A stretch of DNA of 64,000 nucleotides from Bacillota bacterium (GCA_003599345.1 QZJP01000009.1:501-64500), one strand, 5' to 3'. Shown: positions 3,852-36,847, counted from the stretch's first letter. Numbers and translations are program-made. Notes: generated by a model not told the origin, from the sequence alone.

Positions 3852-3962
3852 GTCGTTGAAGGGGAAATGACCAGGTAAATCTTCAAAATCGAGCCTTGGG
3901 AGCGGGCCTGAGAAAAGGTTTAATAGGGAACCGAAACTGCGCCAAGGAGAGGAGGTGACGTA

Positions 3963-4208: not shown

Positions 4209-4237
4209 ACTGGCCGTCCCAGCGGCCTAGCGGAACA

Positions 4238-4268
4238 GGGGAGCGGCTCTCACGGAGAGCCGCTCCCC
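4238..4268. terminator. Strong hairpin between convergent genes (likely bidirectional terminator)
   Basis: GGGGAGCGGCTCT (4238-4250) pairs with AGAGCCGCTCCCC (4256-4268), followed by TATTGTT on the + strand. It lies between the ssp stop (4208) and the minus-strand stop (4321). Confidence 0.7.
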
Positions 4269-4320
4269 TATTGTTGCCTGGCAGTGACAAGGTATGCGGA
4301 AGCGACCTGATTTGGCAAAG

Positions 4321-5190
4321 CTACTTGGCTCCCTGCCTGGAGGCGACGTCGCCGAGTCTCTTGCCCAGTTCGTCCCATTCCGCCGCTATCTCTGGAGGCA
4401 CGTCGCGGCGCGAACGCTTGGACATCCCAGACGCCAGGAGGTACATCTGCGCCAGCCAGTACCCCCGGAAGGCCACATTGTAGTTGATCCATACCTCGAG
4501 TTTGGTGGTGATGTTCACCTGAGGGGAGCGGACGGGTACTCTCAGCCACCCGGAGGTCACGCGCCTGGACCTCCACGTAAAAGCGGGATCTTCGGGGTTC
4601 TTGAACGTGAGGACCAGAGCCCCCCGGTACGGGCCCCTGGGAGGCTTGCGACGGCGGAAGTGGTACTCGAGTTCCTGACGGTCCGCGCCGTAACGGAGGG
4701 CCTCTTTCATGATGAGTTCCGGGGTCATCTCCCGGTTACGGCTGATATAGGGAATCATGAAGTAGATTTCTATCTCGTCTCCGAGGAAGACGTCGTCGCG
4801 CCGCATCTCGGTCAGATACGGAAAGATGCCCCTAAGAATGTCCCCGACCGCCGCGGACGGATAGCCGCGCTGCATGAGGCGGAGGAAAACCTCTTCCCAA
4901 TCCTCCACTCCCAGCTGCTCCGGGGAGAGGTCCGTGATGCGGAAGTGGTCCGGCCAGGTCTCTGTGACGTGCTCGAGAGCTTTGGCTAGACCGGCATAGC
5001 GCCGGCGCACCGTACCGTCGAACCAGTTTGCCGCTAGGAAGACCTCGAGTTGGCTGAACGAGGGGACCTGGACGTGCAGGCGGTTGACAACACAGGGGCT
5101 GGACATGAACGATTCGATGAAATCGGGGACATCCCAGGCGGTGCTCACAACCTCGCCGAAGTAGCGGGGGACTCTCGAGCCTTCGGGCAT
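4321..5190 (-). CDS. Hypothetical protein (no family recognised)
   Basis: 289-aa ORF with a strong SD (GGGAGGTGGGCTG then ATG on the minus strand). Visibly less GC-rich than its neighbours. No motif I can name. Confidence 0.6.
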   Translation of the reverse strand: MPEGSRVPRYFGEVVSTAWDVPDFIESFMSSPCVVNRLHVQVPSFSQLEVFLAANWFDGTVRRRYAGLAKALEHVTETWPDHFRITDLSPEQLGVEDWEEVFLRLMQRGYPSAAVGDILRGIFPYLTEMRRDDVFLGDEIEIYFMIPYISRNREMTPELIMKEALRYGADRQELEYHFRRRKPPRGPYRGALVLTFKNPEDPAFTWRSRRVTSGWLRVPVRSPQVNITTKLEVWINYNVAFRGYWLAQMYLLASGMSKRSRRDVPPEIAAEWDELGKRLGDVASRQGAK

Positions 5191-10444: not shown

Positions 10445-12109
10445 GTGGCATGTACTGCCATCCTGGCGAGAAGGATAGAACGGGAAGAAGGGGTCCTCAT
10501 CAGGTTCAGCGACCTAGTCAGAGGTCTCCGCGTAGAAGCCATGGAGGGCGACCCGGGGGTCGAGGTGACCGGGGTCGCCTATGACTCGCGGCGAGTGACG
10601 CCGGGAGACGCCTTCTTTTGCGTCCGGGGCTACATCCACGATGGTCACGATTTCATCCCCGACGCGGTGGCTCAAGGCGCGGTGGCCCTGGTGGTAGAGG
10701 GCCGGGAAGGGCTGGCGGAGGCCAGGGCCTGGCTCTCGCCCGGGCGTGCCGCCGCGATCGCCGCGGTGCCCGGGATGCGGCCCGCCATGGGCCTCGCCGC
10801 GGCCAACTTCTTCGACCATCCCTCGCGGAGGCTCCGGGTCATCGGGGTGACCGGCACCAACGGCAAGACTACGACGACACACCTTGTCCGGGAACTGCTC
10901 GTAGCCAACGGGTGCACCTGCGGTCTCATCGGCACCGTTCACAATGTGGTGGGTGGGGAGAGCCTGCCCGCCGGGCGGACCACGCCCGAGGCATTCGACC
11001 TCCAGGACCTTGCTCTGAGAATGGTCCGCGCGGGGGACCGCTTCCTCAGCATGGAGGTCGGCTCTCACGCTCTCGCCCTCGACAGGGTGACCGGGTTCGA
11101 CTTCAACATCGCGGTCTTCACGAACCTCAGCCAGGACCACCTGGATTTCCACAAAGACCTCGAGAGCTACTTCCTCGCCAAGGCCAGGCTTTTCGAGAAC
11201 CTGGGCCGGAACGGCCGGGGCGCGTCCGGCGCGACACGAGGCATTGGCGGGGACGACACCAAGGCCGCCATTCTGAACGCTGAAGATCCCGCCTCCGGGC
11301 GGCTGGCTTCCATTGCCACCGCCCCGGTCGTCACATACGGCACCGATTCCAGTTCGGCAGACGTCAGGGCCGCGCGGATACGCCTCGAGCCGTCGAGGGC
11401 GGTCTTTTTCCTGGTCGTCAGCGAGGCTCTCGGTGGGTCGTTCCCGTGGGTGCCCGCGTACGAGGGCGAAGTGGTCCTGTCCATGACCGGGAGGCACAAC
11501 GTGGCCAATGCCCTGGCCGCGCTGACATCCGTGCTCGTCGAGGGGGTCAGCCCCGAGGGAGCGGTGGCCGCCCTGGCGGGAGTCAAAGGCGCGGCCGGCC
11601 GGTTCGAGACAGTGGACGCCGGGCAGGACTTCATGGCCGTCGTGGACTACGCGCACACCCCGGACGGCCTGGAGAACGTCCTGGGGGCCGCCAGGGCTCT
11701 CAAGCCAAGGCGGGTCATCACGGTGTTCGGGTGCGGCGGCGACCGCGACAAGACGAAGAGACCGCTCATGGGGGAGGTCGTCGCCCGCCTCTCGGATCTG
11801 TGCGTCGTGACGTCGGACAACCCCCGCAGCGAGCGACCCGAGGCCATAATCGACGACATCCGGCCGGGGCTGGCGAAGGCCGGCCGTAGGGAGAACTCGG
11901 ACTACTTCATTGAGCCGGACCGGGCCAAGGCCATAGACCTGGCCGTACGCGCGGCCGGGCCCGGGGACCTCGTTCTCGTGGCCGGCAAGGGTCACGAGAC
12001 CTACCAGATGTTCGCCGACCGGACCATCCACTTCGACGACCGCGAGGTCCTGCGCGACTGCATCGCCCGAACCCTGAGGGCGAGAGAGGGGGGACCCGGG
12101 GGTGTCTGA
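10445..12109 (+). CDS. murE: UDP-MurNAc-L-Ala-D-Glu:meso-diaminopimelate ligase MurE
   Basis: GVTGTNGKTTT P-loop and the DNPR motif (SDNPRSE, ~11811-11830) characteristic of DAP-adding MurE. Confidence 0.9.
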   Translation: MACTAILARRIEREEGVLIRFSDLVRGLRVEAMEGDPGVEVTGVAYDSRRVTPGDAFFCVRGYIHDGHDFIPDAVAQGAVALVVEGREGLAEARAWLSPGRAAAIAAVPGMRPAMGLAAANFFDHPSRRLRVIGVTGTNGKTTTTHLVRELLVANGCTCGLIGTVHNVVGGESLPAGRTTPEAFDLQDLALRMVRAGDRFLSMEVGSHALALDRVTGFDFNIAVFTNLSQDHLDFHKDLESYFLAKARLFENLGRNGRGASGATRGIGGDDTKAAILNAEDPASGRLASIATAPVVTYGTDSSSADVRAARIRLEPSRAVFFLVVSEALGGSFPWVPAYEGEVVLSMTGRHNVANALAALTSVLVEGVSPEGAVAALAGVKGAAGRFETVDAGQDFMAVVDYAHTPDGLENVLGAARALKPRRVITVFGCGGDRDKTKRPLMGEVVARLSDLCVVTSDNPRSERPEAIIDDIRPGLAKAGRRENSDYFIEPDRAKAIDLAVRAAGPGDLVLVAGKGHETYQMFADRTIHFDDREVLRDCIARTLRAREGGPGGV

Positions 12110-24776: not shown

Positions 24777-25520
24777 GTGAGCTTACAGATAGTGACACCT
24801 TTGCCCGTGAGATTGCGCTGGTCCTTCATCCTCGTCCTCGGCCGTTGGCGCCGCATGCTCGGGTTGGCCGGAGCTCCCCAGTACTACGTCGGGACGAGTG
24901 AAGCCCTGCCTCCCCCGCTGTCATCGGCCGAGGAGGCCTACCTGCTGTCGCGCCTGCAGGCTGGAGACCTGGCCGTCCGCGGCGTTCTCATCGAACGGAA
25001 CCTGCGGCTCGTGGTGTATATCGCCAAGAAGTTCGACAACACCCGGGTGGGTATCGAGGATCTGGTGTCGATAGGGACCATCGGTCTCATCAAGGCGGTC
25101 AACACCTTTGATCCGACGCGGCGCATCAAACTCGCCACCTACGCCTCGAAATGCATCGAGAACGAAATCCTCATGTTCTTGCGGCGTAACCCTCCGCGCT
25201 CCGAGGTATCCTTCGACGAACCGCTGAACGTCGACTGGGACGGCAACGAGCTTCTCCTGTCGGACGTTCTGGGTACGGAGCCCAACGTAACCTACCGGGA
25301 ACTCGAGGAGGAGGTGGACCGCGCCCTTCTGCGAAAGGCGATGACCAGGCTGTCCGACAGGGAGCGGCGCATCATGGAACTCCGGTTCGGACTGGGTGAC
25401 GGGCAGGAGCGGACGCAAAAGGAGGTCGCCGACCACCTGGGGATTTCGCAGTCCTACATCTCTCGGCTTGAGAAGCGTATCATCAGGCGACTGAGACAAG
25501 AAATCGCCAGCATGCAGTGA
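24777..25520 (+). CDS. sigE: Sporulation sigma factor SigE (pro-sigma-E)
   Basis: ..[80 protein letters not shown] is near-identical in pattern to B. subtilis SigE. An N-terminal pro-sequence is present. Confidence 0.95.
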
Positions 25521-25575: not shown

Positions 25576-26322
25576 CTACCCGGTCTTCCCGAGGGCCAGG
25601 CCGTAGGCCAGCGCGGAAGTGGGGCACGCCGCGACGCAAGCGGGAGACCCTCCGCACAGGTCGCACACTAGAACCATACCCGTCTCCGGTGAGATACGCA
25701 TGGCCGAGAAGGGGCACGCCTCGACGCACCGCCCGCACCCGTTGCACCGGTGGCTCTCCGCCAATACCGCACGGGTAGTGGGCTCACGCCGAAGTGCCCC
25801 CTCGGGACACACCTCCACGCATCGGGCCGCTCCGCATTGCCTACAGATATCGAGTCTCACCGGGGTCGTTCGATCGTCCGCGGCCACCCACATGCGCGAC
25901 TCCCCGGCCGGAGCGCCCTCGCGGTGAGCTTCCCTGCATGCCCTCTCGCACTTGCCGCACGCGTCGCAGGCCGACACGTCGACGAGGATACGCTTGGGCG
26001 GGAGCGGGACGCCACTAGAAGAGTCGTCCGTCCGTTCTGAGACTGTCCCTCCGGCGGGAATACGCTCGAACCTGAATATCACCTGACCGTTGGGGTCCGG
26101 GCACACCATCCGGTGGGTGTCCGGAACCCAATCGTTGTCCTCCGCCAGCTGCCTCTGCTTGACGGGCACCATGGGCATCAGGCTCTGCAGCGCCCAGATA
26201 CAGAAGTACCGGCCGTCGGGGATGTGGAGTCTTCCGCCCTTCACCTCAATGTAGTCTCCGGGTCTCAGGGGTAGGTCACAGAATCCCCGAATCTCCTCCA
26301 CCACGATTCTCAGGTCGTACAC
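25576..26322 (-). CDS. Fusion protein: TIGR04076-like N-terminal domain + four-cluster 4Fe-4S ferredoxin domain
   Basis: 248 aa. The N-terminus MYDLRIVVEEIRGFCDLPLRPGDYIEV..YFCIWALQSLMPMV..MVCPDPNGQVIFRFERI resembles the small TIGR04076 family. The C-terminus carries four Cys motifs: CDACGKCERAC, CRQCGAARCVEVCP, CNGCGRCVEACP, CDLCGGSPACVAACP. Confidence 0.7.
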   Translation of the reverse strand: MYDLRIVVEEIRGFCDLPLRPGDYIEVKGGRLHIPDGRYFCIWALQSLMPMVPVKQRQLAEDNDWVPDTHRMVCPDPNGQVIFRFERIPAGGTVSERTDDSSSGVPLPPKRILVDVSACDACGKCERACREAHREGAPAGESRMWVAADDRTTPVRLDICRQCGAARCVEVCPEGALRREPTTRAVLAESHRCNGCGRCVEACPFSAMRISPETGMVLVCDLCGGSPACVAACPTSALAYGLALGKTG

Positions 26323-26356
26323 TTGCCCTCAACCTTTCAAGTGACTTGGGTGCTGA

Positions 26357-26373
26357 CTCGCGTGACACGCGAG
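26357..26373. promoter_or_regulatory. Perfect 8-1-8 palindrome in divergent intergenic region
   Basis: CTCGCGTG-A-CACGCGAG at 26357-26373, between the minus-strand Fe-S gene (start 26322) and the ECF sigma gene (start 26458). Confidence 0.4.
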
Positions 26374-26457
26374 ACTCGTGGGGTTCGGCGGGGAGCGCCC
26401 TAGACCTGCCGAATAAACCGAGGGACCCGGACGTTCATCAGTCGGGGAGGTAGAGCG

Positions 26458-27066
26458 GTGACCAGTTCTGACCTAGGCATCCTCTACGCCAGGCATCGCC
26501 GCGGTATCCTGCGGGTAGCCTCGAAGCTTCTCCGAGATCAGGCGGCGGCCGAGGACGTGGTCCAGGAGACCTGGGTGAGGGCGATGCGGTTCTTCGGAAC
26601 CCGCGCCACGGACGGACAGCCTTCCGCGGCCTGGTTCTACCGGGTCGCCCTGAACCTCTGCTATGACCGGCTGAGAGCCCTGGCCAGGGACCGGACGGCG
26701 GTAGCGGAACCGGCCGAACTGGATGGGGGTGAGCTTGCCGAGGCCCACGCGGTGGGGTCCGGCGCTCCGGCGGTCGACCCCGAACAGGAGGTTCTCAGGG
26801 CCGAACTGGCCCGCGCGGTACGCGAGGCCGTCGAGGGCCTCCCGCCCCTCTTGCGGGAGGCGGTCGTGTTGAGGGAGTACGGGGGCCTCAAGTACCGCGA
26901 GATCGCCGAGATCGCATCCTGCCCCGTCGGAACGGTCATGTCCCGCCTCCATCTCGCCAGGCAGCGGTTGAGGCTCGCCCTCGCGCCCTACCTGGAACTC
27001 GATACCGACCCGGCCGGAGAGCAGGCAGATACCGACACAGGGCAAGCCGGCCAGGGGGGAGGATGA
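26458..27066 (+). CDS. ECF (group 4) sigma-70 family RNA polymerase sigma factor
   Basis: 202 aa. Region 2: ..AEDVVQETWVRAMR..FYRVALNLCYDRLR. Region 4: ..LREAVVLREYGGLKYREIAEIASCPVGTVMSRLHLARQRLR. GTG follows SD GGGGAGG. Confidence 0.9.
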   Translation: MTSSDLGILYARHRRGILRVASKLLRDQAAAEDVVQETWVRAMRFFGTRATDGQPSAAWFYRVALNLCYDRLRALARDRTAVAEPAELDGGELAEAHAVGSGAPAVDPEQEVLRAELARAVREAVEGLPPLLREAVVLREYGGLKYREIAEIASCPVGTVMSRLHLARQRLRLALAPYLELDTDPAGEQADTDTGQAGQGGG

Positions 27067-27443
27067 AAGGCGTGAACCAACCACTCGAGCAAAGGCCGGA
27101 TTGCGCTCTTTCCTGCATGGCCGGCCCCTACTACGACGGGGAGTTGACCCCCGAGGAGAGCAGGCGGTTCCTGGAGCACCTCTTCTTCTGCCCGGTCTGC
27201 CGGATGGAGGTCAGGGCGATAAGGCGGCTGTCGGAACTCATCCACTCCGACGGGCGCCCCGGTCCGTGGACGCCCGGGCCCGAGGATGAATGTGAGGCGG
27301 CGGCGGAGTGGGGGGCGGGCCACGAGATGGGCCTGCCTTCCCCCGCAGGGGCAGAGGGGCGCCGCAGGCCGCGACTCAAGCCCCGGCCGGGCACGACTCC
27401 GGCTGTCGGCCTCGCGGGAGGTGGTCGGGGTGTCCGCGGTTAG
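27063..27443 (+). CDS. Zinc-binding anti-sigma factor (ZAS / zf-HC2), apparently soluble
   Basis: 126 aa. ATGA overlap with the sigma gene. Complete motif C-x24-H-x3-C-x2-C (DCALSC..FLEHLFFCPVC). No hydrophobic segment follows. Confidence 0.8.
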   Translation: MKGVNQPLEQRPDCALSCMAGPYYDGELTPEESRRFLEHLFFCPVCRMEVRAIRRLSELIHSDGRPGPWTPGPEDECEAAAEWGAGHEMGLPSPAGAEGRRRPRLKPRPGTTPAVGLAGGGRGVRG

Positions 27444-29067
27444 ATACCGGCCCGAGCCGGGGCCGGAAAGGGCCTTTCGGGAACTCTGGGAGGACATCCG
27501 GGATGTCCTGGTCCGCCCGACCCGTGCCTTCTACCGCATCGTTGAAGGGGGACGTATCATCGCCCCGGTAGTGGCTGCCGGCTTGGTGGGGCTCGTGGGC
27601 TCCGGGTCGCAGACCCTCAAGGTCGCGATTCTCGCGGCTATCGGAGGTGGCTGGAGTAGCCTCTGGCTAGCCAAGTTCGTGCTGGCTTTTCTCCTTCTGT
27701 TCCCGCTCGGCTACGCGGCATGGGTCGCCGCGACAGCCGCGGCCGGAAGGGTCGTGGCGGGCAAGGGACTCGGCCTGGGGTTCCGGCAGCTCTTCCGCCG
27801 CTGCTGGTCGGCGTTAGGCTGGGTTTACTTGCCCCTGCTCGTGACGACGGTCATCGTTCTCGTCTGGGTATCGGTCTTCTCAGGCCCGGGCCTGCGCGAG
27901 GCGTTCAGACTAGGCGACGACAGCCTTACGCCCAGCTTCTTCTTTCCCGTGGCGCTGCCTTTGGGGCTGGCGATCAGCCTCTGGGTGGTCGTGCTCCTCG
28001 TCATCGCCGTCCGCCAGGCCTTGGCCACCGACACGGTCAGGGCCATGGTCGTCATCGCCGTCACCTGCCTGGCCGGCGCCGTACTGGTTCACACGCCGGT
28101 CGCGCGGAGCATAGCCACCGGCTTTGTCGATAGCGAGGGCCTTCTGGGCCGCGGGCGGGCTTCGGTCGTCATCAGCCTGGTCGCCTACACCTGGCCCCGG
28201 GAGAGAGCACCCGAGCGGGGGGACCTCGTGGCCCTGAGGGACCCCGTTCGCGGTTCGGCCGACGTGTTCGTGTTGGACACCCCATTCGGGGTTATCACTC
28301 ACGGCTATAAGGGAGTGCCCATGGCGCGGGTCATCGGCCTGCCGGGGGACAGGGTGGCCGTCGATGCCGGAGTGGTCCTCCTCAACGGAGAAGTTCTGGA
28401 CGAACCGTACCTGCGCGATGTCCCGTCCCACATGGCCCACCCGATGCTTCTCGACGTCGATGAAGTAACCGTCCCTGAAGGGCATGTCTTCGTCCTGCCC
28501 GACGACCGGTCCAAGGCGCTCGCCGGCACGGCACCGCACCACGTAACCCCGCTGGGCCACGTGCTCGGAAGAGTCGTGTCTCTTCAGGTGTCGCCCGGTA
28601 CTGTGGTCATGGAGCTGGGGGGACTCCAGAACCAAGGGGGGCAGGAGGTCACCGGCGGTGTCGTAAAGGTCGATCCCTTGGCGGGAGAGGCCGAACCCGG
28701 GATGTTACCGGCGAGCTGGCAGGCCGTGGCGAGGACTCCCTGGGGAGAGGTCGAGGAGCTTGATACTTGGGAGACCCCCTTTCCTTGGCTGGCCGCTGAC
28801 CCGAGGTCGGGCCTGGTGTTGATCGCGGAGAGACCGCGGGCGTCGCTCTCCGCCGCTGTAGTCGTGCGGCCGTCCGGCGTAGCGAAGCGCCTGTCTAAGC
28901 TTGTGACCGAGCCGCTGGCCTTCTCCGCGGAAGGCGACGGTTTCGCCGTCATGAGCCCCTCGACAGAAGGCGTGTCAGGGTCCTGGCCCGCGACGACTAC
29001 CTGCTGCTGGAAAGCGAAACCTGGGTCGAGGCCTACCTCTACGACCTCATGGCCGCGACTGGTATAG
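27430..29067 (+). CDS. Polytopic membrane protein (Yip1-like N-terminal domain) fused to a degenerate signal-peptidase-I (S26)-like domain; 3' end probably frameshifted to 29078
   Basis: GTG 27430 overlaps the anti-sigma stop. About six hydrophobic helices (27.5-28.1 kb). Then ..ERGDLVALRDP.., ..MARVIGLPGDRVAV..LLNGEVLDEPYL.., ..GHVFVLPDDRS.. align to S26 boxes B-E. However, Lys of the KR(V/I)IGLPGD box is Ala, and the SMxPT and GDNRxxSxDSR boxes are degenerate. Confidence 0.7.
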   Translation: MSAVRYRPEPGPERAFRELWEDIRDVLVRPTRAFYRIVEGGRIIAPVVAAGLVGLVGSGSQTLKVAILAAIGGGWSSLWLAKFVLAFLLLFPLGYAAWVAATAAAGRVVAGKGLGLGFRQLFRRCWSALGWVYLPLLVTTVIVLVWVSVFSGPGLREAFRLGDDSLTPSFFFPVALPLGLAISLWVVVLLVIAVRQALATDTVRAMVVIAVTCLAGAVLVHTPVARSIATGFVDSEGLLGRGRASVVISLVAYTWPRERAPERGDLVALRDPVRGSADVFVLDTPFGVITHGYKGVPMARVIGLPGDRVAVDAGVVLLNGEVLDEPYLRDVPSHMAHPMLLDVDEVTVPEGHVFVLPDDRSKALAGTAPHHVTPLGHVLGRVVSLQVSPGTVVMELGGLQNQGGQEVTGGVVKVDPLAGEAEPGMLPASWQAVARTPWGEVEELDTWETPFPWLAADPRSGLVLIAERPRASLSAAVVVRPSGVAKRLSKLVTEPLAFSAEGDGFAVMSPSTEGVSGSWPATTTCCWKAKPGSRPTSTTSWPRLV

Positions 29068-29082
29068 AGGGGAAGTGACGAG

Positions 29083-29559
29083 ATGGGAGTCGTGACCTTG
29101 TTCTTGATGGCTGTTGCCGATGGAAGCAGTTGGTTCTACAGGTCGACTTGGGGCGGAATCGTCCTGCGGGCGGTCACCTACCTGGTGGTCGTCACCGCCC
29201 TAGTTCTGGCGGTGTGGAGCGTTCTGCCCAGGCTCTTCCCGCCGCGCTGCCCCAAGTGCCGAGGACTGCTCGACAAGGAGAACAAGCGCGTCTACGAGGG
29301 CGAAAAGCGGGACCAAATCATCCTGCCGCCCATAGACCTCATCACTAGCCGGTGCCCGTCTTGCGGCCATGAAACGCGGAGCCTGGTCGCGGACACGGGC
29401 CCGACCTTCTTCGAGCGTGGGCAGAAGACCAGGTGGCCCTTCGGGTGGTCGAATTCACCAGAGGCCGCCAGGGAGACCGCCCGCGCCGTCCTGGAGTGGG
29501 ATCGGACCATGGAGCGCTTGAAGCGAGAATTCGACGCGCAGGATAGAAGGCGCGCCTAG
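29083..29559 (+). CDS. Membrane-anchored zinc-ribbon protein (hypothetical)
   Basis: 158 aa. Two N-terminal hydrophobic helices, then the CPKC..(33 aa)..CPSC pairs and a charged C-terminal helix. ATG follows SD GAGGGGAAG. Confidence 0.65.
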   Translation: MGVVTLFLMAVADGSSWFYRSTWGGIVLRAVTYLVVVTALVLAVWSVLPRLFPPRCPKCRGLLDKENKRVYEGEKRDQIILPPIDLITSRCPSCGHETRSLVADTGPTFFERGQKTRWPFGWSNSPEAARETARAVLEWDRTMERLKREFDAQDRRRA

Positions 29560-29562
29560 TCG

Positions 29563-29607
29563 ACAGGCACCGCCCCCGGTTTGCCGCGCGGTGCCTGTTT
29601 CTTTCTT
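29563..29607 (+). terminator. Rho-independent terminator closing the accessory block
   Basis: ACAGGCACCGC (29563-29573) pairs with GCGGTGCCTGT (29588-29598), followed by TTCTTTCTT. Confidence 0.8.
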
Positions 29608-29640
29608 AAGTTCTCCCGGCCGAGCCGGGTAGCGGCCTCG

Positions 29641-29671
29641 GAATAAACCCCCGCCCCGCGTGGGCAGAATC
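29641..29671 (+). promoter_or_regulatory. Candidate forespore (sigma-F/G type) promoter of sigG
   Basis: GAATA (29641-29645), 16 nt, GGGCAGAATC (29662-29671). Compare the published sigma-F pattern GYATA-N15-GGnnAnAHTR. One or two mismatches, and the spacing is off by about 1. Confidence 0.4.
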
Positions 29672-29723
29672 ACCCCTAGTCCCACACAGGCAATAAATGG
29701 GAGTGGGCAGGGGGAACTGGCAC

Positions 29724-30497
29724 GTGCTCGTCAACAAAGTCGAGATTTGCGGCGTTAACACGTCCAAGCTCCCAGTCCTGTCAGCCCCCAAGATGCGCGA
29801 GCTCTTCGTGCGCATGCAGAACGGCGAGACTTCCGCAAGAGAGCAACTCATCCACGGCAACCTCCGCCTCGTCCTGAGCGTGATCCAGAGGTTCAACAAC
29901 CGCGGCGAGTACGTGGACGACCTCTTCCAGGTCGGGTGCATAGGCCTCATCAAGGCCATCGACAACTTCGACCTCGGCCAGAACGTCAAGTTTTCAACCT
30001 ACGCCGTGCCGATGATCATCGGCGAGATAAGGCGCTACCTGCGCGACAACAACGCCATCAGGGTGAGCCGTTCACTCCGCGACATCGCCTACAAGGCCCT
30101 CCAGGTCAGGGACGGTCTTGTGAACAAGCATGCCCGCGAGCCCTCCATCAACGAGATAGCCGACGAGCTTAAGTTGCCCCGGGAGGACATCGTTTTCGCG
30201 CTGGACGCCATCCAGGAACCGATATCGCTGTTCGACCCCGTATATCACGACGGGGGCGACCCCATCTACGTCATGGACCAGATCGGCGACGAGAAGAACC
30301 ACGACTCGACCTGGCTCGAAGGCATTTCCATCCGGGAGGCGATGAGCAAGCTCTCCGAGCGGGAGCGCCTCATCCTGTCCCTTCGGTTCTACCAGGGAAA
30401 GACCCAGATGGAGGTCGCCGAAGAGATAGGTATCTCCCAGGCGCAGGTCTCGAGGCTCGAGAAAGCCGCTTTAGGCCACATGAGGAAGCTCATGTGA
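29724..30497 (+). CDS. sigG: Sporulation sigma factor SigG
   Basis: ..NKVEICGVNTSKLPVL..GNLRLVLSVIQRFNNRGEYVDDLFQVGCIGLIKAIDNFDL..VKFSTYAVPMIIGEIRRYLRDNNAIRVSRSLRD is almost collinear with B. subtilis SigG. GTG 29724 follows AGGGGGA. Confidence 0.95.
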   Translation: MLVNKVEICGVNTSKLPVLSAPKMRELFVRMQNGETSAREQLIHGNLRLVLSVIQRFNNRGEYVDDLFQVGCIGLIKAIDNFDLGQNVKFSTYAVPMIIGEIRRYLRDNNAIRVSRSLRDIAYKALQVRDGLVNKHAREPSINEIADELKLPREDIVFALDAIQEPISLFDPVYHDGGDPIYVMDQIGDEKNHDSTWLEGISIREAMSKLSERERLILSLRFYQGKTQMEVAEEIGISQAQVSRLEKAALGHMRKLM

Positions 30498-30531: not shown

Positions 30532-31602
30532 ATGCGGAACCTATTGCGGGGCAGACTAAGTAGCCATTTCACCACCGGTGAGGTGAGTTCCGGTGGGTTT
30601 GGAGTGACCACGGTGAGACCTGTCATCGAAGTCGAGAGGCGAGGCCGCGACCCCGGCTCCGGTAAAGCGAAAACGACCCCGGCCCGGCGGACGTTCGGCC
30701 GCGCGCTGTTGGGCCTGCTTGTCGCGTTTATCGGGTTGGCGGCCGCGGCGGGCTGGTACCTGCGCGCCGACCTGGCCTACGACACCAGTAACCTCATCCG
30801 GCTCCACGTCGTGGCGAACAGCGACACGCCGACAGACCAGGAGGTCAAGCTCGCCGTCCGCGACGCCATTCTGAAAGCGTCCGGGGAGTTGTTCACGTCC
30901 ACGCCGCCGGAAAACGCCGTCGAAGTGGTCACGGCCAACCTCCCGCTGTTCCAGCGCGTGGCCGAGAACGTCCTCAGGGCCAACGGCTACGACTACCCGG
31001 TCGGCGTGGAATTCGGCACCTTCTCCTTCCCGGAGAGAGCCTACGGTCCCCTCATGCTACCGGCGGGACAATATCAGGCGGTGAGAGTGGTCCTCGGCGA
31101 GGGGGAGGGAGCCAACTGGTGGTGCATTCTGTTCCCGCCCCTGTGCTACCTTGACGTGGTGGGCGGGAACCGGGAAACGGTGTGGGGCATCACGCCGTCA
31201 GGCAGCCTCGCCGGAGCTTCGGGGGCGCCCCTGGCTGACGGCGGGAGCCGCGTCCTGCCTTTGACCTCGCTCACCGAGGCTCAGCTAAGGGACCTTGAGG
31301 TCATCCTCAGCCGGGCTCTCGACAGCCTGGACAACGACACCCGCGCGGCCGGCGCCGGCCTGTCTGAAACGGACTTGGCCGCCATCGGCGACGGGCAACT
31401 CAGGGTCATAATCACGGATGTCCCGACTGACGACGATAGCGGCCTCGTCATACTCGTGGCCGACACCGGCGAAGACAAGACCGAGGTCCGGTTCTACGTC
31501 CTCGACAGGCTCCGGGATCTTTTCACTTCCCTGGCCGAGTGGGCGCCGTGGCTCGTGGGCGCCGCGGGCACCACGCCGGCGCACGTTCCGCCTCAGCGCT
31601 AG
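30532..31602 (+). CDS. spoIIR: Stage II sporulation protein R (SpoIIR), with long internal/C-terminal extension
   Basis: ..IRLHVVANSDTPTDQEVKLAVRDAILK.. and ..VLGEGEGANWWCILFPPLCYLD.. signatures. 356 aa from the longest start (a GTG near 30613 is possible), versus ~220 aa typical. Confidence 0.85.
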   Translation: MRNLLRGRLSSHFTTGEVSSGGFGVTTVRPVIEVERRGRDPGSGKAKTTPARRTFGRALLGLLVAFIGLAAAAGWYLRADLAYDTSNLIRLHVVANSDTPTDQEVKLAVRDAILKASGELFTSTPPENAVEVVTANLPLFQRVAENVLRANGYDYPVGVEFGTFSFPERAYGPLMLPAGQYQAVRVVLGEGEGANWWCILFPPLCYLDVVGGNRETVWGITPSGSLAGASGAPLADGGSRVLPLTSLTEAQLRDLEVILSRALDSLDNDTRAAGAGLSETDLAAIGDGQLRVIITDVPTDDDSGLVILVADTGEDKTEVRFYVLDRLRDLFTSLAEWAPWLVGAAGTTPAHVPPQR

Positions 31603-31791
31603 ATAGCCCCCTGGTCGAGACGGTGGAGTTCATGGCCTGACCCCGGCGCAGGGTGCCTCCCGGAAACCGGACTTGGCGTAGGACTCGTTCCCGAGTCCAT
31701 GAAGCCGTCCGGAAGGCTGCGCAGTGACCGCTGGCTCAAGCCTGCTCTCGGACATACCCGAGGGCCATATACTGTCCCGAGGTGGTCCCGC

Positions 31792-32046
31792 ATGGTCAGG
31801 GCGTCCGACCTCAGGCTCCGCGATGTGGTCAACGTCACCGACGGCACCAGGCTCGGCCTCATCAGCGATTTCGAACTCGACCTCGAGAAGGGCACGGTCA
31901 GGGCCATCATCGTCCCGGGCCCCGGGCGGTTCCTGGGGTTTCTCGGGCGCGAGACCGAGTACACCATCCCCTGGGAACGGATAAAGAAGATAGGCACCGA
32001 CGTCATCCTGGTGGATGTCCCCGCTTACACCGACCCGTCACGCTAG
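31792..32046 (+). CDS. YlmC/YmxH-family sporulation protein (PRC-barrel)
   Basis: 84 aa from ATG 31792 (SD GAGGTGG 6 nt upstream). MVRASDLRLRDVVNVTDGTRLGLISDFELDLEKGTVRAIIVPG..YTIPWERIKKIGTDVILVDV. Confidence 0.85.
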   Translation: MVRASDLRLRDVVNVTDGTRLGLISDFELDLEKGTVRAIIVPGPGRFLGFLGRETEYTIPWERIKKIGTDVILVDVPAYTDPSR

Positions 32047-32204
32047 CCGGCTGCCCTACTCCCCCCAAGCCGGCATCATTCGCGCGACGTTTCGTCAAGT
32101 TGGATTCCTTCCCGCATTTTGGCGAATTTGACCCTAAGGGGCAGTCTCTGACCGGTAGCCCTTTCCGGGACCTCCGGCAGCCCCGATTCCGCCCCTCCAG
32201 ACCT

Positions 32205-32234
32205 TTAGACCACAGCATGTAGGATGGGTATAAT
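32205..32234 (+). promoter_or_regulatory. Candidate sigma-A promoter of nrdR-nrdJ
   Basis: Perfect TATAAT at 32229-32234. The -35 is weak: TTAGAC at 32205-32210 (18-nt spacer). Confidence 0.5.
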
Positions 32235-32241
32235 GGAGAAG

Positions 32242-32257
32242 ACACTACAGGTAGTGA
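32242..32257. promoter_or_regulatory. NrdR box
   Basis: ACACTACAGGTAGTGA. Inverted repeat CACTAC-ag-GTAGTG fits the NrdR-box consensus acaCwAtATaTwGtgt. Sits 8 nt downstream of the -10. Confidence 0.6.
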
Positions 32258-32303
32258 GGAATGTCTGTTCTCCGGAACGCTTGTTCCCCGGGGGGTAGTC
32301 GTC

Positions 32304-32750
32304 TTGCGGTGCCCGGCGTGCGGCCGTCCCGACTCGCGAGTCCTCGACTCGCGCCCGGCCCAGGACCAGCGCATCATCAGAAGGCGGCGCGAGTGTGAGG
32401 GGTGCGGTAACCGGTTCACGACCTACGAGAGGGTCGAAGAGCCCCCCCTCGTGGTCACCAAGAAAGACAACAGGCGGGAAGCCTTCGACTCCCGGAAGAT
32501 TGTCGGCGGCCTCCTCAAGGCGTGCGAGAAACGCCCCGTCACCACCGAGGCCATAGAGAACCTGGCCGCCGAGGTCGAACAGGAGATACGGCAGCGGGGC
32601 TACGGCGAGGTTCCGTCGAGCGTCGTGGGCGAGCTGGTGATGGACAAGCTCCGCCGCCTCGACAAGGTGGCCTACGTGCGTTTTGCCTCAGTCTACAGGG
32701 AGTTCAAGGATCTCGAGGAGTTCAAGAGAGAAGTCGACCGCTTGCGCTAG
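32304..32750 (+). CDS. nrdR: Transcriptional repressor NrdR
   Basis: MRCPACG..CEGCGNRFTTYERVE zinc ribbon plus an ATP-cone (..REAFDSRKIVGGLLKACEKRPV..). Confidence 0.95.
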   Translation: MRCPACGRPDSRVLDSRPAQDQRIIRRRRECEGCGNRFTTYERVEEPPLVVTKKDNRREAFDSRKIVGGLLKACEKRPVTTEAIENLAAEVEQEIRQRGYGEVPSSVVGELVMDKLRRLDKVAYVRFASVYREFKDLEEFKREVDRLR

Positions 32751-32767: not shown

Positions 32768-35700
32768 ATGCCGAGGGAACCCATCCTGTCGGAGAACGCG
32801 CTTGTCGTTCTTCAAAGCCGCTATCTGGCCAAGGATGAGCAAGGACGGGTCGCGGAGACACCGGCGGAGATGTTCCGGCGCGTCGCGCGGAACCTGGCCC
32901 TCATCGATGTCCTGTACCGCCCGGAGGTTTACGACAAGGTTGGCCGGCAGGACGCCATTGGCGGGGAGGATGCCGTCGGCCCGCGGGGCACCGGCGCCGG
33001 TCCCGGCGTGCCGGGCGAGTCCGGTGACTCGGACCTACCCTACTCCAGCCACGACCTGGCCACGTTGCGCCGGGCCTACGATAGCCTGCGCTCCCGCGGG
33101 CACATGAAGGTGTCGTTCGCGGGCCTTCTCGATGAGGCCCGGCGGAGCCGCCGGGAACTCGCCGCCGCCGAGGAGCGCCTCTACGAGGCCATGATCGACC
33201 TCGAACTCCTCTTCAACTCCCCCACCCTCATGAACGCCGGGCGGGAGCTTCAGCAGCTCTCCGCTTGTTTCGTCCTACCCATCGACGATTCGCTGACCGG
33301 CATTTTCGAAACCCTCAAGCACACCGCGCTGATCCACCAGTCAGGAGGAGGCTGCGTTGCGGGCGACGCCCTCGTCCACACGACGTTCTGCGGCGTGGAG
33401 GAGATATCGACCCTCTACGAGCGGGTCCGCCGGACGGGCCTGCCTGAGACGAGCGGAGGCCGCTACCGGGTCATGGACGTCAGGCACCTCGGCGTCAGGA
33501 CGATGTCCCTCGACCCGTCCACCGGAGGGTTCGAGGCGAAGCCCGTCACCCGCCTCTGGCGATGGGAAGTCCCGGTCGAGGAGCAGGTGACGGTTAGCTG
33601 CCGGGGCGGGGAATCGGTCACGACCAGCAGCTGGCACCCGTTCATGGTCTGGAGCGGCGGCCGGGTGGAAGAGAAGGCCGCCGGGGACCTACGCCCGGGA
33701 GACGTCCTGTTTCAGCCCAATCGCGCCGTCCGCGACCATTGGCCCGTAGCCGGATACCATGAGGACGAGGGGCTGGCTCTCGACGAGGGCCTGGCGTGGC
33801 TGGCCGGGTTCTTCCTCGGTGACGGCTCCTTCGAGGTCTTGACCGGCCGCGGGGCCGGCCACCGGGCCCTTCGGCTTCGCCTGCTCGGCGACCGGCGGGA
33901 GACCCTCGATTTCGCCGCCTCGGTCCTGGCGGGGCGCGGGGCGGAGGCTAACGTGCGGCCGGACTCCGGCGGCCGGTGGAGCCTCCAGACGACCGACCGG
34001 CGTTTCACGGGGCGGTTCGCGCGGCTCCTGGAGGCCATCCCCGGTCCGAAGACGGACCTGACCCTGCCGTCGGGGGTCTCGAAATCGCCCCTCCCGGTGA
34101 TCGGGGCCTTCCTGGGCGGGCTCACCGACTCCGGCGGCTACGTCGACCCCCGCGGGCGCCGGGTCGGATTCTCGACCGCCTACCCGAGCCTTGCCCGCCG
34201 CCTGCAGGCCTTGCTGAGCCTCCTTGGCTTCAGCCCCACCTTGCGCGTGAGGAAACCCAAGGGCCGGTCCAGGCAGCCGCTATTCGACGTGAAGTTCGCC
34301 GCGGCGACGAAGACTCATGAACTGGCCGGCCTGGTCCTCCCTTGGGTTCACGACCCCCTCAAGGCGGAACGTTTGGCCGCCCTCACGCGGCCCGCCGCCC
34401 GCGACACCCGCCGGCGCGTTCCGGTCAGGTTCGAGGACATTCGGGACCTCGTCGCGGCGGCGGGGGTGGAAACACGGGGCACCGCCATCCCCCGCGGCCC
34501 GGTGCGGATAGGCGGGGAGACGTTCTGGCTCCACCGGATGAAGTGGCAGGAGGGGATGAGCGAGGCCGGTCTCCTGCGGCTGGTCGGGGCCCTCCGGAGG
34601 GTCCTCGGACCCGAGCACCGGCCGCGGCTCGACCTCCTTAAGGCCCTGGCGAGCGGCTGGACCGTCGTCGAGCGGGTGGCTCCCGCGTCCACGCCGCAGG
34701 ACTTCTACGACTTCACCGTGGAGGGTCACAACAACTATCTGGCCGGAAGGGGTAATCTGGCCGTAATCCACAACACCGGGTTCTCCTTCTCCCGCCTGCG
34801 CCCCAAGGACGACATCGTCCGTTCCACCGGGGGCGTGGCCAGCGGGCCGGTATCCTTCATGAAGGTCTTCGACGCGGCCACCAATGCCGTCAAGCAGGGC
34901 GGGACGCGCCGGGGGGCCAACATGGGCATCCTCCGCTGCGACCACCCCGACATCCTGGAGTTCATCGACTCCAAGGTGGACAGCCAGGCCATCACCAACT
35001 TCAACATCTCGGTCGGGCTGACCGACAAGTTCATGGAGGCGGTCGGGAGGGACGAGGTCTATGAGCTCAGAAACCCGCGCACCGGGGAGGTCACGGGAGA
35101 GTTCAAGGCCCGGGAGGTCTTCGAGAAGGTGGCGAAACGCGCCTGGGCCAACGGCGAACCCGGGGTCATCTTCCTCGACCGCCTGAACGCGGCCAACCCC
35201 ACGCCGCAGATAGGGGAGATAGAGAGCACCAACCCCTGCGGCGAGCAGCCTCTCCTGCCGTTCGAGTCCTGCAACCTCGCTTCGCTCAACCTCGGCCGGA
35301 TGGTGCGGGGCGGCCGGTTCGACTTCGAACGTCTCGGCTCCCTGGTCCACCTGGCCGTCCGCTACCTTGACAACGTCATCGACGCCAATCGTTACCCGAT
35401 GCCCGAGATAGAGCGGATGACCAAGGGGAACCGGAAGATAGGTCTTGGGGTCATGGGCTGGGCCGACGCCCTGATCCAGCTCGGCATCCCGTACGACTCG
35501 GAGGAGGCCGTCGCCCTCGCCGAGGAGGTCATGGGCTTCATCGATGCCGAGTCCAAGAAGGCGTCTACAGAACTCGCGAGGTCGAGAGGGCCCTTCCCGA
35601 ATTTCCCCGGTTCGGCTCTCGACAAGACCGGCCTCGAGCCCCGGCGCAACGCTACCACCACGACTATTGCCCCCACGGGGACCATAAGCATCATCGCCGG

Positions 35701-36847
35701 GGCGTCGGGGGGCATCGAACCTCTGTTCTCCATCGCCTTTACCCGGAGAGGCATCCTCGGAGGCAAGGAGCTCGTGGAGGTCAACCCCTACTTCGAGCGG
35801 GTGGCGGAAACGGGAGGCTTCGCGAGCGACGAGTTCATGGCCAGGGTGGCCGAGATCGGTAGTGTGCAGGGGATGGACGAGGTGCCGACCGAAATCAGGC
35901 GCGTTTTCGTCTCCGCTCTCGACATCTCCCCCGAATGGCACGTTCGCATGCAAGCCGCCTTCCAGAAGCACACGGACAACGCCGTGTCCAAGACGGTCAA
36001 CCTCCCGTTCGAGGCGACCCCCGAGGATATCCGGGCCATCTACACGCAGGCCTTTGAGCTTGGCTGTAAGGGCGTCACAGTCTACCGCAACGGGAGCCGG
36101 AGCGAGCAGGTTCTGAACGTGGGGAAGGGGGCGGCCGGCGCCGCCCCGGCCTTGTCGCCGGCGACCGGGTGCGGCGCTCCCGGAGGAGTCGCTGCCGCCG
36201 GTGGGGCGGGGGCTTCCGGCCCGACCGGCGCCCGGGCCGGCGGGGCGGTGGTGGACCTCGGGTCGTGGGGCGCGATACGACCCCTGCAGAGGCCCGAGGG
36301 CCTTCAGGGCGTCACCGTCAGGAAGGCGACCCCCCTCGGCAATCTCTACCTGACCCTCAACACGGTCGACGGGCACCCGTTCGAGCTCTTCGCCCAGATA
36401 GGCAAGGCGGGCACCGATGTCGCGGCCTTCACCGAGGGCCTGGCGCGCCTCGTGTCACTGGCCCTGCGCTGCGGCATCTCCCCCGACGAGATTGTCAGCG
36501 ATCTCTCCGGCATCGGCGGCAGCCGGAGTGTGGGCTTCGGCCCCAACAAGATACGGTCCATACCCGACGCGATAGCCGTCTTCATGGATGAGTTTCTCGC
36601 CGGGCGGGTGGCCGTTTCACCTTGGGCCGAAGTCAAGGCCGGCCAACTCACCTGGCTCACGAGCTCCAACGGCGGCGTGGTCGAAGACGGGACCGGAGTC
36701 GCGGCCGCCGCGAACGGGGCCGGGGTCTCACCGGCACGGCCCGTCGTCAAAGTCGACCACGACCTCTGCCCGAGTTGCTGGATGTACACGCTGGCCTATG
36801 AGGAAGGCTGTCTGAAGTGCCGCTCTTGTGGGTACAGTGAATGCTAG
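32768..36847 (+). CDS. nrdJ: Class II (adenosylcobalamin-dependent) ribonucleotide reductase NrdJ, intein-containing precursor
   Basis: ATG 32768 follows GGGGAGGAG. ..LFNSPTLMNAG..QLSACFVLPIDDS.., ..STNPCGEQPL.., ..TIAPTGTISI... C-terminal TSCPD-like region and Cys-rich tail CPSC..CLKCRSCGYSEC. The upstream part of the track ORF (from 32522) lies inside nrdR. Confidence 0.9.
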   Translation: MPREPILSENALVVLQSRYLAKDEQGRVAETPAEMFRRVARNLALIDVLYRPEVYDKVGRQDAIGGEDAVGPRGTGAGPGVPGESGDSDLPYSSHDLATLRRAYDSLRSRGHMKVSFAGLLDEARRSRRELAAAEERLYEAMIDLELLFNSPTLMNAGRELQQLSACFVLPIDDSLTGIFETLKHTALIHQSGGGCVAGDALVHTTFCGVEEISTLYERVRRTGLPETSGGRYRVMDVRHLGVRTMSLDPSTGGFEAKPVTRLWRWEVPVEEQVTVSCRGGESVTTSSWHPFMVWSGGRVEEKAAGDLRPGDVLFQPNRAVRDHWPVAGYHEDEGLALDEGLAWLAGFFLGDGSFEVLTGRGAGHRALRLRLLGDRRETLDFAASVLAGRGAEANVRPDSGGRWSLQTTDRRFTGRFARLLEAIPGPKTDLTLPSGVSKSPLPVIGAFLGGLTDSGGYVDPRGRRVGFSTAYPSLARRLQALLSLLGFSPTLRVRKPKGRSRQPLFDVKFAAATKTHELAGLVLPWVHDPLKAERLAALTRPAARDTRRRVPVRFEDIRDLVAAAGVETRGTAIPRGPVRIGGETFWLHRMKWQEGMSEAGLLRLVGALRRVLGPEHRPRLDLLKALASGWTVVERVAPASTPQDFYDFTVEGHNNYLAGRGNLAVIHNTGFSFSRLRPKDDIVRSTGGVASGPVSFMKVFDAATNAVKQGGTRRGANMGILRCDHPDILEFIDSKVDSQAITNFNISVGLTDKFMEAVGRDEVYELRNPRTGEVTGEFKAREVFEKVAKRAWANGEPGVIFLDRLNAANPTPQIGEIESTNPCGEQPLLPFESCNLASLNLGRMVRGGRFDFERLGSLVHLAVRYLDNVIDANRYPMPEIERMTKGNRKIGLGVMGWADALIQLGIPYDSEEAVALAEEVMGFIDAESKKASTELARSRGPFPNFPGSALDKTGLEPRRNATTTTIAPTGTISIIAGASGGIEPLFSIAFTRRGILGGKELVEVNPYFERVAETGGFASDEFMARVAEIGSVQGMDEVPTEIRRVFVSALDISPEWHVRMQAAFQKHTDNAVSKTVNLPFEATPEDIRAIYTQAFELGCKGVTVYRNGSRSEQVLNVGKGAAGAAPALSPATGCGAPGGVAAAGGAGASGPTGARAGGAVVDLGSWGAIRPLQRPEGLQGVTVRKATPLGNLYLTLNTVDGHPFELFAQIGKAGTDVAAFTEGLARLVSLALRCGISPDEIVSDLSGIGGSRSVGFGPNKIRSIPDAIAVFMDEFLAGRVAVSPWAEVKAGQLTWLTSSNGGVVEDGTGVAAAANGAGVSPARPVVKVDHDLCPSCWMYTLAYEEGCLKCRSCGYSEC
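33353..34774 (+). mobile_element. Intein (474 aa) with LAGLIDADG homing-endonuclease domain inserted in nrdJ
   Basis: The host motif SGGG / TGFSFSRLRP is interrupted. The insert starts CVAGDALVHT (block A) and has ..TTSSWHPF (block B). LAGLIDADG motifs are LAWLAGFFLGDGSF and VIGAFLGGLTDSGGYV. It ends ..DFTVEGHNNYLAG..LAVIHN, followed by +1 Thr. Confidence 0.9.

Follow-up and report, generated by a model that had tools for sequence, protein, structure and literature searches.

Gene content of the sigE-sigG junction

We analyzed a 64-kb window (64,000 nucleotides) of a Bacillota bacterium genome (GCA_003599345.1, QZJP01000009.1:501-64500; part of the 98.6-kb JGI metagenome contig Ga0104761_1000078, sample 3300007354) that carries, between the sporulation sigma genes sigE and sigG, genes for an extracytoplasmic function (ECF) sigma factor, a putative zinc-binding anti-sigma factor (ZAS), a membrane protein joining Yip1 and signal peptidase-like (S26) domains, and a zinc-ribbon protein (ZNR). 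In Bacillus subtilis, sigG lies directly downstream of spoIIGA and sigE, with read-through (PMC5942855). In the high-GC window (~66% GC), five open reading frames (ORFs) fill a 4.2-kb gap between the end of sigE at 25520 and the start of sigG at 29724. An initial annotation made from the sequence had placed the boundaries at these positions, and the equivalog matches of both flanking proteins and the GTG start of sigG in relatives agree with it; ORF positions and Pfam and NCBIfam profile searches likewise bear out the five ORFs and the domains guessed for them. The ORFs are real genes, with a GC content at third codon positions (GC3) of 0.75-0.88, identifiable homologues and a gene order kept in more than 20 loci. 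The features are listed below, with profile scores followed by the cut-off where there is one.

26411-26435, plus strand: ECF-type promoter GAATAAACCGAGGGACCCGGACGTT (-35 GAATA, 16-nt spacer, -10 CGT), 22 nt upstream of the sigma start
26458-27066, plus strand: ECF (group 4) sigma factor, 202 amino acids (Pfam Sigma70_r2, 56.7 bits, and Sigma70_r4_2, 59.2 bits, without region 3)
27063-27443, plus strand: soluble ZAS anti-sigma factor (predicted), 126 amino acids (Pfam zf-HC2, 33.4 bits vs 22.2)
27430-29067, plus strand: Yip1/S26 fusion protein (Yip1, 35.7 bits vs 28.6; Peptidase_S26, 52.6 vs 22.9)
~27538-28107, plus strand: Yip1-type domain (PF04893) with five transmembrane (TM) segments
~28114-28590, plus strand: ectodomain of signal peptidase fold (Pfam Peptidase_S26, Foldseek), predicted to lack the catalytic dyad
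~28776-29067, plus strand: truncated remnant of a propeller-like C-terminal domain, part of the Yip1/S26 gene
28975-29078, plus strand: frameshifted tail, with codon periodicity in the other frame and an alternative TGA stop at 29076-29078
29083-29559, plus strand: membrane-anchored zinc-ribbon protein ZNR, 158 amino acids, with two CxxC pairs and no family match
29562-29607, plus strand: intrinsic terminator (stem 29562-29599)
25576-26322, minus strand: fusion of a TIGR04076 domain (75 bits vs 33) with a 2x[4Fe-4S] ferredoxin (4Fe-4S dicluster/Fer4 families)
24777-25520, plus strand: sigE, left flank (NCBIfam SigE equivalog, 387 bits vs 339)
29724-30497, plus strand: sigG, right flank (NCBIfam SigG equivalog, 500 bits vs 457)

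The initial annotation treated the five genes as a single block. We find two units instead, as the ferredoxin gene has no counterpart in related loci. The other unit (26411-29607) we read as an autoregulated ECF operon for envelope signaling with a pseudo-peptidase as the sensor, a lineage-specific cassette lodged between sigE and sigG in an uncultured, high-GC clade of Bacillota, and we give this reading about an even chance of being correct.

Transcription signals and translational coupling

The plus-strand operon is probably autoregulated, its promoter and co-transcription being called in silico. The string GAATA-N16-CGTT occurs once in the window (0.06 matches expected), and the Shine-Dalgarno (SD) sequence of the sigma gene, GGGGAGG, is at 26444-26450. 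In related loci the motif is present once per module, at a constant distance from every ECF start and SD, and a search allowing T or C at the fourth -35 base uncovered no other site on either strand of 288 kb of loci. When 8 diverged loci were aligned, the invariant upstream columns, besides one SD base and the start codon, were GAATA and CGT at fixed spacing, and every sigma gene was preceded by the motif in the form GAATA-N16-CGT(T/C). The same alignment holds no -10 element of the sigmaE/F/G/K type at the operon promoter. We also considered a sigmaF/G-type promoter and rejected it: although its -35 is similar to the sigG one, the -10 that is conserved reads CGT.

The genes are closely packed. 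An ATGA overlap (27063-27066) joins the sigma and anti-sigma genes and a 14-nt overlap (27430-27443) the anti-sigma and Yip1/S26 genes, and both the SD sequences and these overlaps, which would couple translation, are conserved in relatives. The terminator consists of a 12-bp GC-rich stem followed by the U-tract UUUCUUUCUU; its predicted fold (-26.8 kcal/mol) has a z-score of -5.07 and was matched in stability by none of 200 shuffled sequences. All three elements had been noticed in the initial annotation. Between the preceding gene and the ECF promoter, relatives (L012-L017 and L088, e.g., at 10447-10485 of the latter) carry a 16-bp GC-rich hairpin (CGACCGCCGGCCGCCC / GGGCGGCCGGCGGTCG) with a weak U-tract, probably a terminator that insulates the operon from sigE. 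Because the operon has its own ECF promoter, and because the hairpin precedes that promoter in relatives, we regard it as an autonomous unit and not as a read-through extension of spoIIG.

The passage from the Yip1/S26 gene to the ZNR gene involves a frameshift. From ~28975 onward, GC3 is 0.85 in the alternative frame vs 0.65 in the annotated one, which elsewhere has 0.81; the alternative frame translates as RVLARDDYLLLESETWVEAYLYDLMAATGIEGK and ends at the TGA at 29076-29078, 4 nt before the ATG at 29083. A frameshift and a stop/SD/ATG junction at 29076-29083 had been suspected earlier, and both the shift in periodicity and the gap-free assemblies agree. Indeed, the SRR29054605 and SRR29054607 assemblies are 99.8-99.9% identical over the locus, with no gaps among the three assemblies that include the window. 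Since these two independent assemblies have no indel, an assembly error is ruled out and the frameshift is a real feature of the population. A separate small ORF in the alternative frame was also rejected, as it has no start codon before an internal ATG. The frameshift alters no more than ~30 residues, at the end of a tail that is truncated and not conserved, and represents a genuine recent mutation in a decaying C-terminal remnant.

The sigma and anti-sigma factors

The first two products are ordinary members of their superfamilies. The sigma factor scores 90 bits against the NCBIfam superfamily model TIGR02937 (cut-off 42.9) and reaches the cut-off of no NCBIfam equivalog; its match to actinobacterial SigH (TIGR02947, 81 bits vs a cut-off of 251.6) is sub-threshold and leaves it outside the SigR/SigH family. 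Among solved structures, the closest are AlgU-like sigma-H, E. coli sigma-E, Mycobacterium tuberculosis SigH and SigW. Zinc binding by the anti-sigma factor and inhibition of the sigma are predictions from sequence: the ligand set C14, H39, C43 and C46 (HxxxCxxC, encoded at 27177-27200) is invariant in 10 anti-sigma homologues, and there are weak matches in the PDB to the anti-sigma factors DdvA and RsiW. The protein has a variable Pro-, Arg- and Gly-rich tail, whose end overlaps the SD and start of the next gene. We found no hydrophobic segment in the window protein and none was visible in 9 further main-clade homologues. With neither a TM segment nor a cleavable extracytoplasmic domain, the protein falls outside the membrane anti-sigma factors controlled by regulated intramembrane proteolysis (RsiW, RsiV, RseA). 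A distant subfamily has His as its N-terminal ligand, where the main one has Cys, and has gained a C-terminal hydrophobic helix.

These properties bear on the main rival to an envelope-signaling operon, a cytoplasmic thiol or redox switch of the SigR/RsrA type, in which the Yip1/pseudo-peptidase protein and ZNR would be outputs of an envelope-protective regulon. The anti-sigma factor is soluble and the spacing of its invariant ligands is nearly that of RsrA (C11-H37-C41-C44). The sub-threshold SigH match points the same way, as does the promoter, which read as GAAT-N18-GTT fits that of SigR, whose elements are separated by 18 nt. The SigR consensus (PMC5005934, citing Paget 1998) has GGAAT at -35 and GTT(G) at -10. 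Against such a switch, the distant subfamily has replaced the Cys ligand and acquired a helix yet kept the membrane partner, and in none of the loci does the operon contain or adjoin a gene for thioredoxin or thiol repair. Furthermore, the hypervariable outer domains of the membrane protein are more sensor-like than expected of a housekeeping effector, and the sigma scores far below the SigH cut-off. We consider the redox switch unlikely. The membrane partner is retained in both subfamilies even though the N-terminal zinc ligand changes from one to the other, which favors the membrane protein as the conserved regulatory partner.

A Yip1 membrane protein with a signal peptidase fold

The third gene encodes the largest product of the operon. 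Its Yip1 domain was identified by a profile match and by five hydrophobic segments that coincide with helices in the AlphaFold2 (AF2) model; some relatives have a Yip1 match below threshold. The model has a predicted local distance difference test score (pLDDT) of 60.8, with 75-88 in the TM helices and the S26 core. The best Foldseek matches of the beta domain are type I signal peptidases (SpsB at E = 3e-6; 4me8 with a target-normalized TM-score, TMt, of 0.64), and a profile-to-PDB alignment sets the family's 'lGRVIGLPGD' under the 'yvKRiIGlPGD' of signal peptidases. The topology is self-consistent, with the N-terminus inside, five TM helices, the S26 domain outside, a sixth TM helix and the ribbon inside, the last two being supplied by the separate ZNR gene in the window and by the same chain in the fused forms of relatives. 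With the N-terminus inside and five TM helices preceding it, the S26 domain would face outward. What follows this domain varies among relatives and may be a propeller-like domain, a DUF4932-like domain with HExxH, YD repeats, a TM helix plus ribbon, or nothing.

Judged by its sequence, the S26 domain is a pseudo-peptidase without the Ser/Lys dyad, as had been proposed before. We located the catalytic columns in a MAFFT alignment of 13 family members, the signal peptidase homologues retrieved by a profile search, and SipS. The Lys column of box D (K-R-x-I-G-x-P-G-D) holds Ala in the window protein, Gly in 11 relatives and Val in one, a loss in 13 of 13; among the comparators, SipS and six of the eight retrieved homologues keep the Lys and the other two have Gln and Ala. 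For box B (S-M-x-P-T), whose alignment is less secure than that of box D, the Ser column is Asp in 11 of 13 members, one distant member has Ser followed by Pro, and Ser-Met is absent from all 13. The GDNR motif has become PDDR and the box E serines are lost, and the box D/E framework is kept (R-V-I-G-L-P-G-D and D-R). The protein barely passes the NCBIfam equivalog TIGR02227, 'signal peptidase I' (48.7 bits vs 47, a margin of 1.7 bits), so automatic annotation will mislabel it despite the missing dyad. Four other matches of the profile search (P0004, P0043, P0058 and P0084) are also without Ser or Lys, hence dead S26 domains are not rare.

The same alignment contains residues from which an unconventional protease could be assembled. 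D234, aligned with the nucleophile column, is invariant, and H221, T222 and P223 of the LVHTP motif, located at the edge of the membrane, show no or almost no variation. The domain might then use the Asp at the Ser position and the LVHTP His to cleave a partner and activate the sigma, much as signal peptidases act as site-1 proteases of RsiV and RsiP (PMC4183432, PMC8844934). We judge this very improbable because no member has a Lys at the general-base position (Gly, Ala or Val instead), the box E serines are gone, the anti-sigma factor has no extracytoplasmic part to cut, and the alignment around box B is uncertain.

Distribution and gene order in related loci

The Yip1/S26 family is small, with about ten clusters at 50% identity among 1.8 billion representatives, all from uncultured organisms. 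A word-indexed protein search retrieved 3 relatives only. An exhaustive profile search of 1.84 billion representatives recovered eight full-length clusters (E from 1e-189 to 1e-81) and a distant group of ~400-residue Yip1+S26 proteins (E ~1e-10), the remaining matches being ordinary signal peptidases aligned over the S26 part only. A metagenome scan yielded 14 loci with flanks, and exact look-up of protein sequences added more. GTDB species-representative genomes returned one 2-kb contig only, so the clade is essentially known from metagenomes alone.

In these loci the conserved core is, by gene order, the triad of sigma, ZAS and Yip1/S26 genes, which keeps its order wherever upstream sequence exists (L004, L006-L018, L019-L021, L091, L093 and L094). 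The arrangement spoIIGA-sigE-[ECF sigma-ZAS-Yip1/S26-(ZNR)]-sigG-spoIIR was found in L004, L008-L011, L013, L014, L015, L017, L018 and L093, and placement at the junction extends to at least seven diverged lineages, in which spoIIGA is only 54-67% identical. The initial annotation had asked whether a quartet that includes the ZNR gene co-occurs across genomes. The triad does; some loci lack ZNR and others carry it as a fusion. In the distant L089/L090 subfamily, a 151-residue HxxxCxxC protein is encoded between the ECF sigma and Yip1/S26 genes, the sigma gene of L090 running off the contig end. At 1184-4526, L089 also carries GatD/GatE-like genes, whose architecture is that of the archaeal type of amidotransferase, next to a bacterial Tex gene.

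The triad also occurs elsewhere. In marine-sediment contigs it follows an ABC transporter with an FtsX-like permease. A second triad, L091 (6799-10340 of GCA_041890195.1, JBEEQD010010295.1), adjoins the pyr operon and is followed by a gene for a DUF4097 protein; it is in the same metagenome-assembled genome (MAG) as the junction copy L004, and MAG binning may affect the reading of two copies per genome. The -35 element of L091 is duplicated (GGTGAATAAACCTGGTGAATAAACC). Mobile-element or phage cargo was considered as an origin of the cassette and found no support: apart from short matches at chance level, neither direct nor inverted repeats flank it, viral contigs yielded no relatives, and the window contains neither a tRNA nor an Rfam element. 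None of the five proteins matches a PADLOC model of anti-phage defense.

The zinc-ribbon protein

The fourth gene encodes ZNR, in which a TM helix (residues 22-51) is followed by a predicted cytoplasmic ribbon (C56/C59/C91/C94) and a C-terminal helix with an invariant E138-W139, next to which D140 is present in at least 90% of the sequences. The structure was predicted from database homologues (AF2 pLDDT 72). No family in Pfam or NCBIfam covers ZNR and no structural neighbor was found at E <= 0.001, where matches were limited to generic zinc ribbons such as NrdR. The family comprises 11 clusters, all in one lineage, and its copy at NCBI is a hypothetical protein of a 'Bacillota bacterium' MAG. 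A role as a second ZAS-like anti-sigma factor was rejected (hhalign probability of ZNR to ZAS, 1.8%). Neither ZNR nor the S26-like protein matches a characterized family with another role, in keeping with the suggestion of an uncharacterized signaling-type module made in the initial annotation.

By its distribution, ZNR is a detachable fourth part of the module. The gene lies 3' of the Yip1/S26 gene in most junction loci, has one to three paralogues in others, and is absent from L004 and from the triads located away from the junction. In relatives (P0007 and P0012; loci L008-L011/L018), it is fused to the C-terminus of Yip1/S26, so the two proteins probably act as one unit. A paralogue, ZNR-A, is 33-35% identical to the window protein and is encoded ~50 nt after sigE, with no hairpin between (L014 1105-1509; L015 2597-3031; L017 272-688; L088 10001-10411; a remnant in L013). 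In L014, L015, L017 and L088, ZNR-A is probably the last gene of the spoIIG operon.

Evolution of the cassette and its position

Sequence change is far more rapid in the cassette than in its flanks, and duplications, truncations and deletions are frequent. In related loci (tblastn), SigG is 88-93% and SigE 87-90% identical to the window proteins, as compared to 51-57% for the ECF sigma, 42-66% for ZAS, 33-54% for ZNR and 35-44% for Yip1/S26. Among close relatives, the ratio of nonsynonymous to synonymous substitution rates (dN/dS) is 0.00-0.02 for sigG, 0.10-0.34 for sigE and 0.15-0.46 for Yip1/S26, the latter indicating purifying selection over more than 100 substitutions; it reaches 0.8-1.0 for ZNR-B and 0.55-1.0 for ZNR-A. 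Turnover is recorded in several places. L015 (3169-10685) has a tandem duplication of the module with a degraded first copy, L093 (5208-5567) has a frameshifted ZNR gene, and in L088 (10517-11103) the triad was deleted from the junction, leaving a remnant of the promoter and sigma start, a piece of the membrane protein's C-terminal end, and the ZNR genes.

One could conclude that the cassette is a dispensable, decaying passenger that now does little or nothing in the window genome, and the junction a permissive insertion site. The high dN/dS of both ZNR types next to that of sigG, the degraded, truncated and deleted copies in relatives, the frameshifted tail and truncated outer domain of the window Yip1/S26 gene, and the insertion of an unrelated ferredoxin gene at the same junction are consistent with this view. 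Yet the four window ORFs are intact and have every family-invariant residue, the Yip1/S26 protein is under purifying selection, and the promoter, SDs and coupling overlaps are conserved. In addition, the triad survives very deep divergence, and no flanking repeats or viral-contig relatives accompany it. A passenger without function is, in our estimate, quite unlikely.

The position of the cassette had also been taken, in the initial annotation, to suggest a compartment-specific link to sporulation, and we find it improbable that the module acts in the intermembrane space or modulates sigmaE or sigmaG (for example, with ZNR working like CsfB/Gin). The support is positional: the junction placement kept in at least seven diverged lineages, the probable inclusion of ZNR-A in the spoIIG operon in four loci, and the ZNR genes that stay at the L088 junction after deletion of the triad. 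Set against it are the operon's own ECF promoter and the hairpin that insulates it from sigE in relatives, the lack of a sigmaE/F/G/K-type -10 in the operon promoter, and the triads found away from sporulation genes. Nor did we identify, in Pfam and even at E <= 1, a Gin or Fin match for ZNR, ZNR-A or a 76-residue zinc-finger ORF; the hhalign comparison of ZNR with ZAS was equally negative. Finally, the deletion in L088 and the decay elsewhere show that the sporulation gene set does not need the cassette. We infer that the position at sigE-sigG reflects inherited synteny, without being evidence of sporulation function, and that the ferredoxin gene is an unrelated neighbor.

A model for envelope signaling

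In the envelope-signaling model that we favor, the membrane protein and the zinc-ribbon module would together form the sensing, membrane-spanning half of an anti-sigma system split in two. A cue from the envelope or from outside the cell would bind the dead peptidase cleft or the outer domain, which is variable in the way that sensor ectodomains of anti-sigma factors are. Binding would alter how the cytoplasmic parts hold or stabilize the soluble anti-sigma, the zinc ribbon serving as the output module, and the sigma would be released. The freed sigma could then transcribe its own operon and targets elsewhere in the genome.

Several observations weigh against the model. ZNR has a dN/dS near 1 and decay is frequent (L015, L088, L093 and the tail in the window), which together suggest that the cassette is dispensable and that its function may have been lost in places. 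No promoter targets besides the operon itself were found in the window or in the 288 kb of loci. The quality of the Yip1/S26 structure model is moderate (pLDDT 61). The anti-sigma factor lacks any TM segment, and in its C14-H39-C43-C46 ligands it is similar to RsrA, a redox sensor of the cytoplasm; it might therefore respond to a cytoplasmic signal on its own, with the membrane proteins as outputs.

A more specific version of the model is that the dead ectodomain is a receptor for unprocessed signal peptides or for arylomycin-like natural inhibitors of type I signal peptidase (SPase I), bound in the substrate groove that it has kept, and signals via the Yip1 helices and the ribbon to the soluble anti-sigma. 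We regard this idea as doubtful. If true, the cassette would be an ECF pathway for secretion stress or antibiotics whose sensor derives from an enzyme, a concept comparable to BlaR1/MecR1, and a receptor at the sigE-sigG junction might monitor which proteins reach the intermembrane space by export while engulfment proceeds.

If the membrane protein is a sensor, the cassette would provide a split anti-sigma architecture with a pseudo-enzyme ectodomain, and a function both for a bacterial Yip1 domain and for a class of dead S26 domains. The finding also shows that the otherwise rigid spoIIGA-sigE-sigG junction tolerates accessory cargo, stably in one clade, a point of use in comparing sporulation loci. 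No long-standing problem is settled by it.

The ferredoxin gene and flanking regions

The minus-strand ferredoxin gene is convergent with sigE and divergent from the ECF operon. Because tblastn detected no homologue in any of ~25 related loci, we rejected it as a member of the module and consider it a separate insertion at the sigE-sigG junction in the window lineage. No characterization of the TIGR04076 family was found in the literature searched. A perfect palindrome, CTCGCGTGACACGCGAG (26357-26373), lies between the divergent ferredoxin gene and ECF operon and may be an operator.

On the other side, the sigG ORF opens at 29697 and the start in relatives is the GTG at 29724. A sigmaF/G-like promoter, GGAATAAACC...GGGCAGAATCA, lies upstream at 29640-29672 and its motif is kept in L088. 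The -35-like decamer of this region (GGAATAAACC) is near-identical to that of the ECF promoter (CGAATAAACC, 26410-26419), and the -10 parts differ. All long related loci keep the ftsA-ftsZ-spoIIGA-sigE-[cassette]-sigG-spoIIR cluster. In the window, spoIIR immediately 3' of sigG, then a PRC-barrel (ylmC/ymxH-like) gene and nrdR, occupy 30532-32750, and next comes a gene for the large subunit of ribonucleotide reductase with an intein that has a LAGLIDADG endonuclease (32768-36847). Orthologues of the latter have two inteins in L004 (1632 residues) and none in L088 (884 residues) or L093 (919 residues).

Comparison with known systems

Among characterized systems, SigR-RsrA and SigH-RshA (ECF12-type) share with the cassette a two-domain ECF sigma co-transcribed with a soluble HxxxCxxC anti-sigma that has an additional upstream Cys, and an autoregulatory promoter of the GGAAT...GTT type (PMC5005934). 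They differ in that the cassette sigma scores below the SigH/SigR cut-offs and its operon always includes the Yip1/pseudo-peptidase gene and usually the ZNR gene, with no thiol-repair genes nearby.

An S26-fold protein is also tied to ECF sigma control in the SigV-RsiV and SigP-RsiP systems of Bacillota (PMC4183432, PMC6066255, PMC8844934). There, an active housekeeping signal peptidase cuts a single-pass anti-sigma factor. In the cassette, by contrast, the S26 protein is encoded in the operon, is without the Ser/Lys dyad and is fused to a Yip1 domain of five TM helices, and the anti-sigma has no membrane or outer part. With a dead S26 domain and a soluble anti-sigma, the site-1 mechanism of RsiV and RsiP cannot apply to the cassette. 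The fold and the box D/E framework are those of type I signal peptidases (SipS, LepB and SpsB; MEROPS S26A), but the cassette protein has the five-helix Yip1 anchor in place of one or two TM helices, carries extra C-terminal modules and has lost the catalytic residues.

RsiW is a ZAS-type membrane anti-sigma factor that is removed by PrsW and RasP, and the sigmaW regulon, with promoters of the form TGAAAC-N16-CGTA, includes the Yip1-family protein YknW. The SigW-RsiW system shares the ZAS motif with the cassette, and SigW and RsiW are among the nearest solved relatives of its products; RsiW spans the membrane, whereas the ZAS of the cassette is soluble. Both systems associate a Yip1-family membrane protein with an ECF regulon, and the marine triads adjoin an ABC transporter with an FtsX-like permease. 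Unlike the cassette protein, YknW carries no S26 domain and its gene does not accompany that of the sigma, and the promoters differ (TGAAAC-N16-CGTA vs GAATA-N16-CGT).

CsfB (Gin) and Fin resemble ZNR in their small size, their two CxxC pairs and the location of their genes next to those of sporulation sigma factors, but ZNR is membrane-anchored, is part of the Yip1/S26 protein in relatives and matches neither family. We found no paper in the literature searched that links Yip1 or S26 domains to ECF/anti-sigma systems, nor a membrane zinc-ribbon module like ZNR in the ECF literature covered, and the main text of the ECF reclassification paper does not mention these domains. Pairs of ECF sigma and anti-sigma factors are already well known; the novelty of the cassette is its conserved third component, a Yip1 domain joined to an inactivated signal peptidase, together with the detachable ZNR.

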